Positions 15,586 to 17,130 of a DNA stretch of 25,157 nucleotides are shown piece after piece. The translations under genes were made by a program, and so were the position numbers. Origin of the DNA: an uncultured Candidatus Saccharibacteria bacterium (GTDB lineage Bacteria; Patescibacteriota; Minisyncoccia; Phycocordibacterales; CAIRYW01); contig CAZIMQ010000001.1 of NCBI GenBank assembly GCA_964540495.1, positions 1-25,157 of the forward strand. Direction: 5' to 3'. Below the pieces are notes generated by a model that was given only the letters and a program-made list of their open reading frames with translations, was not told the DNA's origin and made no database searches. Numbering within the stretch: position 1 is the first letter of the stretch; every line of letters starts with the position of its first letter.

Positions 15586-15924
15586 TTAAAATGAATGCTC
15601 AGTAATTTGCATAACCGCTTTAAATATTAAAATTGAATATAAAATCACAATTACTACACTTATAAACCAAGAGGTGTGTTTTAGCCATTTTTGTTTTATG
15701 TTTGGAAACAAAGTCTCTGTTATAAGTTTAGGAAAGGTTAATAACACCATTACGAGTGGAACAAGACAGATAAAGAAGAGAAATTGTAAATATCCACCAC
15801 CGATTTTCTGTTTAAAGTAGTATATTGCAGAAATTATTGTGGTAAATTCCATCCATCTAAATAATTTGTCTGCAAAAAACCAGGTAACCTCTAAGTCTTT
15901 CTCAGGTTTCATAAGTTTACTCAA
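15586..15924 (-). CDS. Hypothetical membrane protein (112 aa, about 3 TM)
   Basis: Hydrophobic segments. The start overlaps the grpE stop by 8 nt. Confidence 0.65.
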   Translation of the reverse strand: MSKLMKPEKDLEVTWFFADKLFRWMEFTTIISAIYYFKQKIGGGYLQFLFFICLVPLVMVLLTFPKLITETLFPNIKQKWLKHTSWFISVVIVILYSILIFKAVMQITEHSF

Positions 15925-16492
15925 ACACTTTTACACTTGCAGGTCGAATTTCTTTTCCATGCATTGTGTAGCCTTTTTGCATCACTTGCGCTACTTTTCC
16001 TTTGAGAGATTCGTCTTCTGTTGTAACTGTGCCAATTGGATTGTGCTTCATGACATCAACTTCTAGGTTTAAAGGATTTTCTTGTTTTACTCCAAAGCGC
16101 TCTAGTGTACTGATGATGTGGTTGTAAATATACTCGATTCCTGATCTCCAGTTTTTGTCTACTTTTTCCCAGTTTTCTTTGTTTGCCATCGCCATATCAA
16201 AGGCATCTAGAGCCGACAGGAGCTCCACCACGAGGGTTTCGTTGGCATACTTGATAAGTTCACCTTGATTTTTCTCAGCTTCTTTCTTGCTGTTTATGTA
16301 GTCAGCTTTAGTTCTCTGCCAGCCAGTTAAATATTCACGGTTTTCTTGCTCTAGTTTTTTTACTTTTTCTTTCAGTTTCTTGACCGTGTCTTTTAGGTTT
16401 TCGTCTGAATACTCAATATCGTCAGCAGAGTCTGCGTCTGCGTTCGTATCTGGTTCTAATATAAGATCATCTTTGTTTGAGGTGTCGTCCAT
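15917..16492 (-). CDS. grpE: Nucleotide exchange factor GrpE
   Basis: Acidic N-terminus, coiled coil, WQRTKADYINSKK, LLSALDAFD and QKGYTMHGKEIRPASVKV. Confidence 0.97.
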   Translation of the reverse strand: MDDTSNKDDLILEPDTNADADSADDIEYSDENLKDTVKKLKEKVKKLEQENREYLTGWQRTKADYINSKKEAEKNQGELIKYANETLVVELLSALDAFDMAMANKENWEKVDKNWRSGIEYIYNHIISTLERFGVKQENPLNLEVDVMKHNPIGTVTTEDESLKGKVAQVMQKGYTMHGKEIRPASVKVFE

Positions 16493-16501
16493 AGTCAGGG
16501 T

Positions 16502-16530
16502 ATTGTAAATTTTTTAGGTAAAATATGCAA
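16502..16530 (-). promoter_or_regulatory. sigma70 promoter of grpE (very short leader)
   Basis: TTGCAT (16525-16530)-17 nt-TACAAT (16502-16507), 9 nt before the ATG. Confidence 0.7.
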
Positions 16531-16560
16531 GAAAAAATCCCCTTTCGGGGAGTTTTTCTT
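16529..16560. terminator. Intrinsic (bidirectional-type) terminator
   Basis: Minus strand aagaaaaactcccc-GAAA-ggggattttttctt: GNRA loop with A/U flanks. Confidence 0.85.
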
Positions 16561-16754
16561 TATCTTTTTGACCAATGAGGACGCTCCGCTACCTTGGAAA
16601 CCCACGGTTTTCCAACGCTCGAAGACTCACTGCCTTCCTCCACAGGGAAACCGGAGTTTCCCTGGCACCCTTCTCACTCCTCAGTGGTCAAAAATAAAAA
16701 AACTCCCACTGAAGTGTGAGAGTTTTTTTTATTATCTTTTTGACCACTGAGGAG
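16560..16754. repeat. Structured element containing three copies of the rpsI 3' end around a GC-rich two-hairpin core (MITE/REP-like or att-site remnant)
   Basis: 16560-16581 matches 16732-16753 at 21/22 nt in direct orientation. 16677-16694 is a perfect 18-nt inverted copy of 16737-16754. The core 16582-16676 is 55/95 G+C, with hairpins at 16594-16615 and 16643-16664. Confidence 0.85.
16696..16729 (-). terminator. Intrinsic terminator directly after rpsI
   Basis: Minus strand aaaaaaa-ctctcac-acttca-gtgggag-ttttttt. Confidence 0.85.
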
Positions 16755-17130
16755 ATTTTCTCGCTTTCTTGAGTCCGAACTTTCTTCGTTCTTTTGCTCT
16801 AGGATCTCTCTTTAGGAAACCTTCTTTCTTTAGAGCTCCTCGAAGCTCGTGATCCATTTCAATCAATGCTCTTGAGATTCCAAGTCGGATTGATTCAGCT
16901 TGAGAAGACATACCTCCTCCAGAAACAATTGCACTTACTTTAAATTTTAGTTCAGGAGAGATTTTAGAGAAAGGTGCTTTTACAACATGCTCTAGTTCTT
17001 TTGTTGGAAAACATTCAGCTAGTGTTTTGTCGTTTATTACAAAACTCATTTTACTTTCAGGAAAAAGACGTACTCGAGCAATCGATGTTTTTCTTCGTCC
17101 AATACTTTCAAAATATTTCGTGTCTTTCAT
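16732..17130 (-). CDS. rpsI: 30S ribosomal protein S9
   Basis: GRRKTSIARVRL, GGGMSSQAESIRLGISRAL and ERRKFGLKKARKSPQWSKR. Confidence 0.98.
   Translation of the reverse strand: MKDTKYFESIGRRKTSIARVRLFPESKMSFVINDKTLAECFPTKELEHVVKAPFSKISPELKFKVSAIVSGGGMSSQAESIRLGISRALIEMDHELRGALKKEGFLKRDPRAKERRKFGLKKARKSPQWSKR

Follow-up and report, generated by a model that had tools for sequence, protein, structure and literature searches.

Why should the 3' end of a ribosomal protein gene be followed, ahead of the next gene, by an inverted and then by a direct copy of itself, with a structured core held between the two? The question arises from the region between rpsI and grpE in the window (the whole 25,157-nt stretch of DNA that was analysed), where the parts lie on the minus strand in the order rpsI end (A), terminator 1, B, core, C, terminator 2, grpE, as the original prediction had it and with every part at the position foreseen. 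We demonstrate here the anatomy of this element, the family to which its core belongs, the structure of that core, its patchy presence among relatives and the match between its arms and the adjacent gene, and we consider it probable that the element belongs to a class of patescibacterial protein-less cassettes (~170-200 bp) that are gained and lost at the ends of conserved genes. Each such cassette would consist of a core of ~85 nt folding as a single strand, with an inverted copy of the gene end on its 5' side and a direct copy on its 3' side, these arms corresponding to the final (or first) ~15-57 nt of the adjacent gene; since the arms copy the gene end, the adjacent gene stays whole.

In particular, the host or target gene is rpsI (ribosomal protein S9; 16732-17130, an ORF that matches Pfam Ribosomal_S9 with E = 6e-39), and its final 20 nt together with the stop codon make up the mirrored sequence A (16732-16754). 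Terminator 1 (h; 16696-16729), a hairpin with A and T tracts, a 14-bp stem and a T run, forms the tip of the long A:B hairpin. B (16677-16694), the antisense copy of A that lies directly 5' of the core, is the perfect 18-nt copy that had been claimed (18/18 as the reverse complement of 16737-16754) and extends imperfectly to 16702 (26 nt, 88%). C (16560-16581), a direct copy of the rpsI end, is likewise as described, with 21 of 22 positions identical to 16732-16753 and the TAA stop included. Terminator 2 (16529-16559) comprises a hairpin at 16538-16551 and a T run, beyond which lies the next gene, grpE (15917-16492). Within the core, taken as the whole span between B and C (16582-16676), a conserved structured part of type 1 is matched by covariance model R1 at 16592-16675 (84 nt, 57% GC, 97.9 bits). 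Two hairpins had been predicted there, one with a UCCG loop; that hairpin stands but the count does not, three helices being found, namely P1 with the UCCG loop (16643-16664), P2 (16616-16630) and P3 (16594-16615), accompanied by a purine-rich joiner, GUGGAGGAAGGCA (16631-16642), and a tail or linker, TAGCGGAGCG (16582-16591), held in common with the tail ending ATAGCGAAGCG of tRNA-linked copies. The resemblance of the two tails hints at a tRNA-linked origin of the rpsI lineage. The 241-nt element stretch folds much more stably than shuffled sequences do (z = -9.3).

That the arrangement might be a one-off local duplication or an assembly artefact is refuted, with next to no doubt, by independent contigs and hundreds of family members, and the corresponding refuting conditions of the original prediction do not apply. 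Positions 16534-16789 are spanned by a Logan contig of an independent run (X2) with zero differences, and in a relative at ~90% from another study (run X4) the rpsI-grpE site is likewise occupied by the element. In the X4 relative the P3 region of the core is lengthened by 75 bases, placed at 16599, and similar P3-loop insertions are seen in some copies of genome G117 (L071 and L074).

The rpsI copy is the sole type-1 copy in the source genome (G000). A BLAST search of 40 relatives recovered the core at other loci with 80-95% identity, several times per genome in some, and a covariance model built from 8 copies gave hits in 64 of 151 genomes belonging to the same order, the highest count being 15 copies in a 0.9-Mb genome; it is rarer among the other genomes sampled across the phylum (8 of 150) than within the order. 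Exact-motif core sites numbered 89 among 185,579 species-representative genomes, and all 89 were titled Patescibacteria or groups thereof (Parcubacteria/Paceibacterota, Kaiser-, Taylor-, Wolfe-, Nomurabacteria and others). Clustering of the cores, which are short sequences, by host or by target gave a weak signal. Rfam yielded no relevant match on the window, either at the gathering threshold or at E <= 10, and tRNAs only on 11 related loci; the core was absent from IMG/VR in two exact-motif scans and from INPHARED phages and PLSDB plasmids by BLAST, and we found no description of the CPR family in the literature. The core is a real structured family outside Rfam: widespread, undescribed and protein-less, in CPR bacteria.

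The fold of this family is carried by P1, by a short and variable P2 and by P3. Among 63 aligned copies 98% of the cells were paired, and compensatory changes on both sides occurred in 18 of the 22 pairs; none of 500 shuffles reached these values, and slid controls were also far off. Pairing is favoured by the fitting of the alignment to the model, and genomes that are related do not count as independent, but we argue that the covariation is real in spite of this, given the size of the effect and the slid controls. Since G.U pairs in the core far outnumber A.C (62 to 9), the fold belongs to one strand, here the rpsI sense strand, as RNA or single-stranded DNA. Unpaired positions are strongly conserved in sequence, and P2, the P1 loop and the P3 loop accept insertions of tens of bases. 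A strand-specific fold with G.U pairs also speaks for a functional read-through small RNA of the TLR/RtT kind (E. coli tRNA-linked repeats), whereby the RNA or the A:B hairpin would serve the cell in processing, stability or protein titration, with the arms under selection; on the evidence assembled here and below, we judge that to be improbable as the explanation of the locus, although it is compatible with mobility.

The plan of the rpsI copy (gene end A, spacer, antisense B, core, direct C up to the gene boundary) recurred in the first 30 loci, at a wide range of genes. According to ARAGORN and Pfam, the targets include the 3' ends of at least 14 tRNA species and those of tmRNA, rpsI and L33, and, according to Pfam, the 5' ends of genes for a GT4 glycosyltransferase, a MurD-like ligase, LepA/EF-G-type GTPases and an HMA/P-type ATPase; one core family thus has more than 20 different targets. 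Within an independent set of 82 copies, 48 lay behind tRNA or tmRNA genes and 9 behind rpsI, which is the commonest protein-gene target of the type-1 cassette family. In the same set the antisense arm (A:B) scored above all 40 shuffles in 53 copies, the direct arm (A:C) in 50, and either arm in 64, where chance would give ~2 of 82. Antisense arms measure 13-21 nt and gene-end duplications 16-57 nt, changing with the target. Cores of G117 that are 90-95% alike are found at tRNA-Arg, tRNA-Ile, tRNA-Phe and a protein gene, each with arms that match its own target, the tRNA-specific acceptor part included. The same core at other loci, with arms matching the local gene or tRNA ends, is the result that the original prediction had named as decisive, and it supports what had been proposed for the rpsI element, a non-autonomous mobile element that takes its arms from the target.

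The boundaries of the arms are themselves informative. In 9 of 13 aligned copies at tRNA targets the antisense arm has its inner end at the first base of the T loop (GTTCGA), in the remaining 4 it lies within ~4 nt of that base, and in several tRNA-linked copies the inner arm is the consensus T loop and not the local variant. Where the target is a 5' end, the core strand runs antisense to the gene, there is no hairpin at the turn, and in at least 6 loci the duplication, up to 57 nt long, stops precisely where the start codon lies; arms of up to 57 nt with such an end point to selection that keeps the gene intact, or to exchange of the integrase type, and weigh against the main explanation. The strand orientation at these targets counts against the small-RNA explanation, under which B would there be sense to the mRNA, and the suggestion of an RNA switch or antisense RNA acting on rpsI cannot account for copies at gene 5' ends. 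The missing hairpin, in turn, weighs against template switching during replication, according to which a switch at terminator palindromes would generate a direct-inverted-direct triplication and an abundant small nucleic acid (the core) would be caught at the junction, with no dedicated mobility system. In favour of such switching are the direct-inverted-direct order and the palindromic terminator where it turns; A, h and B form one perfect palindrome in some copies (L032 and L034), and the T-loop TTCGAA is itself palindromic. The same core, however, recurs hundreds of times with precise junctions, and its unpaired sequence is strongly conserved, and we hold template switching to be extremely improbable.

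Gain and loss can be followed at the rpsI site. Filled sites occur within the family in G000, G009, G014 and G020 (three genera), and the empty-site alleles that the original prediction had proposed to look for, consisting of rpsI, one terminator and grpE, are present in G005, G006, G012, G015 and G036. G012, a congener of G014, is empty, and the sequence after its rpsI matches that after C in G014; for a second comparison of an empty with a filled site (G159 versus G047) the sequences are too diverged. More generally, the presence of the type-1 core is patchy within genera, which is a further point against a small RNA that serves the cell. The arms at the four filled sites are in that explanation's favour: B tracks the local rpsI coding sequence (CTCCTC is paired with GAGGAG in two genomes, CACCTC with GAGGTG in the third and CACCGC with GTGGTG in the fourth), so that it follows coding changes across genera, the A:B mismatches are exclusively G.U on the sense strand, and the spacer hairpin differs from genome to genome. 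Over 35 loci, however, the wider count of A:B mismatches is 31 versus 21 for the G.U type, which is not significant.

In the rpsI lineage C often has alternative serine and lysine codons relative to A, and B always agrees with A. Considering that C differs while B and A agree, an element-borne or displaced gene end fits better than local duplication. This evidence also speaks for an integrase-type (Campbell) origin, in which the cassette would be a minimal satellite or CIME-like remnant of integrative elements, moved by a site-specific recombinase in trans. It would bring a substitute for the gene end (the end of A), together with a terminator, B and the core, and C would be the displaced native end. 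G014 points the other way: there A, not C, is like the native rpsI end of its congener G012. The tyrosine integrases of streptococcal ICEs target the 3' ends of tRNA genes, rpsI and rpmG and the 5' ends of housekeeping genes (PMC4701971), a spectrum shared by the cassettes; the duplications stop at the gene boundary; and in G117 a 6.9-kb defence island behind tRNA-Asn has a copy of the cassette region on either side. Against this, more than 20 targets are served by one core family, no copy of the core turned up in the phage, plasmid and IMG/VR collections, and classical att sites leave B unexplained. Taking both sides together, we think a Campbell-type origin rather unlikely.

ICE and IME att sites and CIMEs nevertheless deserve comparison, since they share the same targets and the gene is kept intact by a duplicated end (PMC4701971). 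The direct repeats A and C, made of the target gene end, flank the cassette much as attL and attR would. The differences are that the cassettes have no linked integrase, measure ~170-200 bp, combine one core with many target specificities and possess an extra inverted copy. The suggestion that the locus is an att-site remnant accordingly held for the classical integrase target spectrum (PMC4701971) but not for a linked integrase, nor for one core serving many targets. The overlap in targets with the streptococcal integrases may reflect related chemistry, or the survival of gene-sparing insertions only.

The search for a mobilising enzyme gave largely negative results. Clustering of neighbouring ORFs at 57 + 89 loci returned the targets and housekeeping genes only, with no recurrent mobile-element gene. 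The window contains no integrase or transposase, as had been stated, and in the whole assembly one Xer-like recombinase is present, located on a different contig, whereas RT, IS110 and Y1 genes are lacking. Xer-like tyrosine recombinases number one each in G000, G117, G115, G126 and G133 and two in G034, none of them within 1.5 kb of a core in the genomes tested, which also counts against a Campbell-type exchange. RT (PF00078) is absent from G000, G034, G115 and G126, the IS110 DEDD recombinase (PF01548) from G000 and five high-copy genomes, and TnpB (PF07282) and serine recombinases from the high-copy genomes. RAYT-like Y1 genes are present in 46 of 64 core-positive versus 44 of 87 core-negative genomes (odds ratio ~2.5), and each of the nine genomes that contain 6 or more cores has one, yet they are flanked by different palindromes of their own and have no core within 2.5 kb, so that their link to the core is weak. 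Of the RAYT, IS200, IS110 and RT genes that the original prediction had proposed to look for, none is linked, and the RAYT-like genes co-occur weakly.

Two side observations belong here. The RAYT-like Y1 genes are single-copy and encode ~220-245 aa (for example L138:2230-3185 in G117 and L140:2450-3255 in G126), and the palindromes around them, such as AGGTTTAACCT units and GACAAGTCAGACTTGTC, constitute a separate REP-like system. Additionally, a gene for a UPF0102/YraN-type (PD-(D/E)XK-like) nuclease lies within ~1 kb of a core in 8 of 89 loci (eight species), for example L161:4732-5310; this may be mere synteny with the tRNA gene.

As to how the cassettes move, we tentatively suggest a mechanism that we regard as possible. 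The cassette would move via a single-stranded intermediate; its core-adjacent arm would act as an address that pairs with the target end; as the cassette inserts, the new target would serve as the template for the rest of both arms; the inverted copy would arise when synthesis switches strands at the terminator palindrome; and host or other trans-acting enzymes would carry out the insertion. Once settled between two terminators, the cassette would be represented in RNA only through read-through of terminator 1, comparable to rrA/B/F of E. coli. If the arms are truly copied from each target, the insertion mechanism would be unlike any described transposon or integrase. A stronger version would make the address rewritable, a short core-adjacent seed pairing with the gene end at every move and the rest being copied into both arms, so that the cassette would retarget itself; were this true, the cassettes would form a self-reprogramming, nucleic-acid-guided insertion system. 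We consider such self-retargeting, by a protein-less element that would work through base pairing to both DNA strands, very improbable, and with it the view that the E. coli TLRs are its relatives.

Several known systems resemble parts of this arrangement. The CTX-phage attP(+) (XerCD) and the integron attC are folded single-strand attachment sites that act strand-specifically, and in folded attachment sites two inverted target-like copies ~90 nt apart fold into a duplex that mimics the target. The cassette differs in that it targets neither dif nor attI, lacks any visible phage or integron context, and maintains pairing between B and A, not between B and C. With the bridge (seek) RNA of IS110/IS1111 the likeness is one of geometry only, one arm being complementary to a given strand on one side of the crossover, the second identical to that strand on the opposite side; there is no DEDD recombinase in G000 or in five high-copy genomes, the arms are much longer and no donor-binding loop is recognised. 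REPIN-RAYT elements, PATEs of IS200/IS605 and MITEs are, like the cassettes, small, non-coding, hairpin-rich, multicopy, extragenic and strand-specific, whereas the arms of the cassettes vary with the target instead of forming fixed TIRs, and the duplication (16-57 nt) is not fixed. Membership was also rejected for REPIN-RAYT, in that the repeats do not flank a RAYT gene and co-occurrence is weak; IS200/IS605 and OMEGA (TnpB) RNA, in that PF07282 is absent, G000 has no Y1 gene and there is no Rfam match; and retrons, group II introns and DGRs, in that G000 has no RT, and RT and core are independent across 151 genomes (24 overlaps, ~26 expected).

The rpsI end and tRNA genes are also occupied by a second type of core. 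In G002 (L022) and G003 (L019), of the same genus, a type-2 core and not type 1 is found at the same rpsI 3' end, in units that follow the same plan with antisense and direct copies of their own. G000 has at least 11 type-2 copies that follow this plan behind tRNA genes (on contigs C18:1365-1550, C41:5830-6195, C14:5086-5245, C40:4665-4702, C48:2336-2660, C20:2881-2940 and others). The type-2 core ends in GGGGTCGCG, an AT-rich hairpin and TGTGACC, and has nothing corresponding to it in Rfam. In all, 18 of the 35 tRNA genes of G000 are followed, at a distance of 17-91 nt, by an antisense copy of the gene's own T arm, against a chance estimate of ~0.3, and so many tRNA genes with such a unit are again in favour of a small RNA that serves the cell. 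A single target can carry both types in tandem, and type 2 is sometimes nested in type 1.

Nesting is also seen around the G117 island (L084:4289-11800, contig C5), which lies between two direct repeats of ~450 bp, each of them a type-1 core with a nested type-2 module. The island genes are GmrSD-HNH, an EcoRI-type methylase, an SDH protease, AbiEii/AbiEi and two unknown ORFs; these two ORFs, beside the cassette, have no recombinase features, and one encodes a membrane protein.

The closest parallel in plan comes from E. coli, whose tRNA-linked repeats have lacked an explanation since 1978. [quoted passage not shown] The likeness to the cassettes is that the unit sits directly behind a gene and ends in a copy of the gene's end, as C does at rpsI (21/22). 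TLR units are single or in tandem, and the rrn units are placed between two terminators (PMC8144298), as the rpsI copy is between two terminator-like sites. This common plan of gene, T1, unit ending in the gene 3' end and T2 (PMC8144298) is a further argument for the small-RNA explanation. The direct repeat of TLR units is described in PMC8144298. Moreover, we find in the tyrT units (L147, K-12 tyrT-tyrV-rttR) an antisense 10-mer, GGGGAAGGAT, to the 3' part of tRNA-Tyr at the 5' side and a direct 19-mer at the 3' end, hence an antisense and a direct copy on the B-core-C plan, which also favours the small-RNA explanation; the rrnB unit has a direct copy only and no antisense copy. The differences are that the upstream gene is a tRNA or rRNA gene there and the protein gene rpsI here (48 of 82 CPR copies being behind tRNA or tmRNA), that the antisense arms here are longer (13-21 nt), that the CPR targets include protein genes and both gene ends, and that the CPR core has no match to TLRs in sequence or structure. 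Rfam model RF00391 scored 133-137 bits on four E. coli units, used as a positive control, and had no match on the window or the CPR loci even at E <= 10. Judged from sequence comparison, the CPR cassettes and E. coli RtT share an architecture but not a family.

Since CPR genomes offer many young copies together with empty sites, they provide a route to the origin of such units, whose plan is shared with the E. coli repeats. Cassettes at half of the tRNA genes of a 0.7-Mb genome, and at rpsI, amount to a major unannotated feature of CPR genomes. Such units may pass for att scars, pseudo-tRNAs or riboswitch-like leaders, and their long hairpins and repeats break assemblies.

Finally, we observed a type-1 subtype in which the core is bordered on either side by fixed hairpins and not by gene-end copies, at loci L110-L112 (G159), L058, L061, L064 and L069 (G126) and L068, L070, L073, L075 and L081 (G115). 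Its near-identical copies of ~215 nt lie at unrelated sites and hence look recently active and MITE-like.
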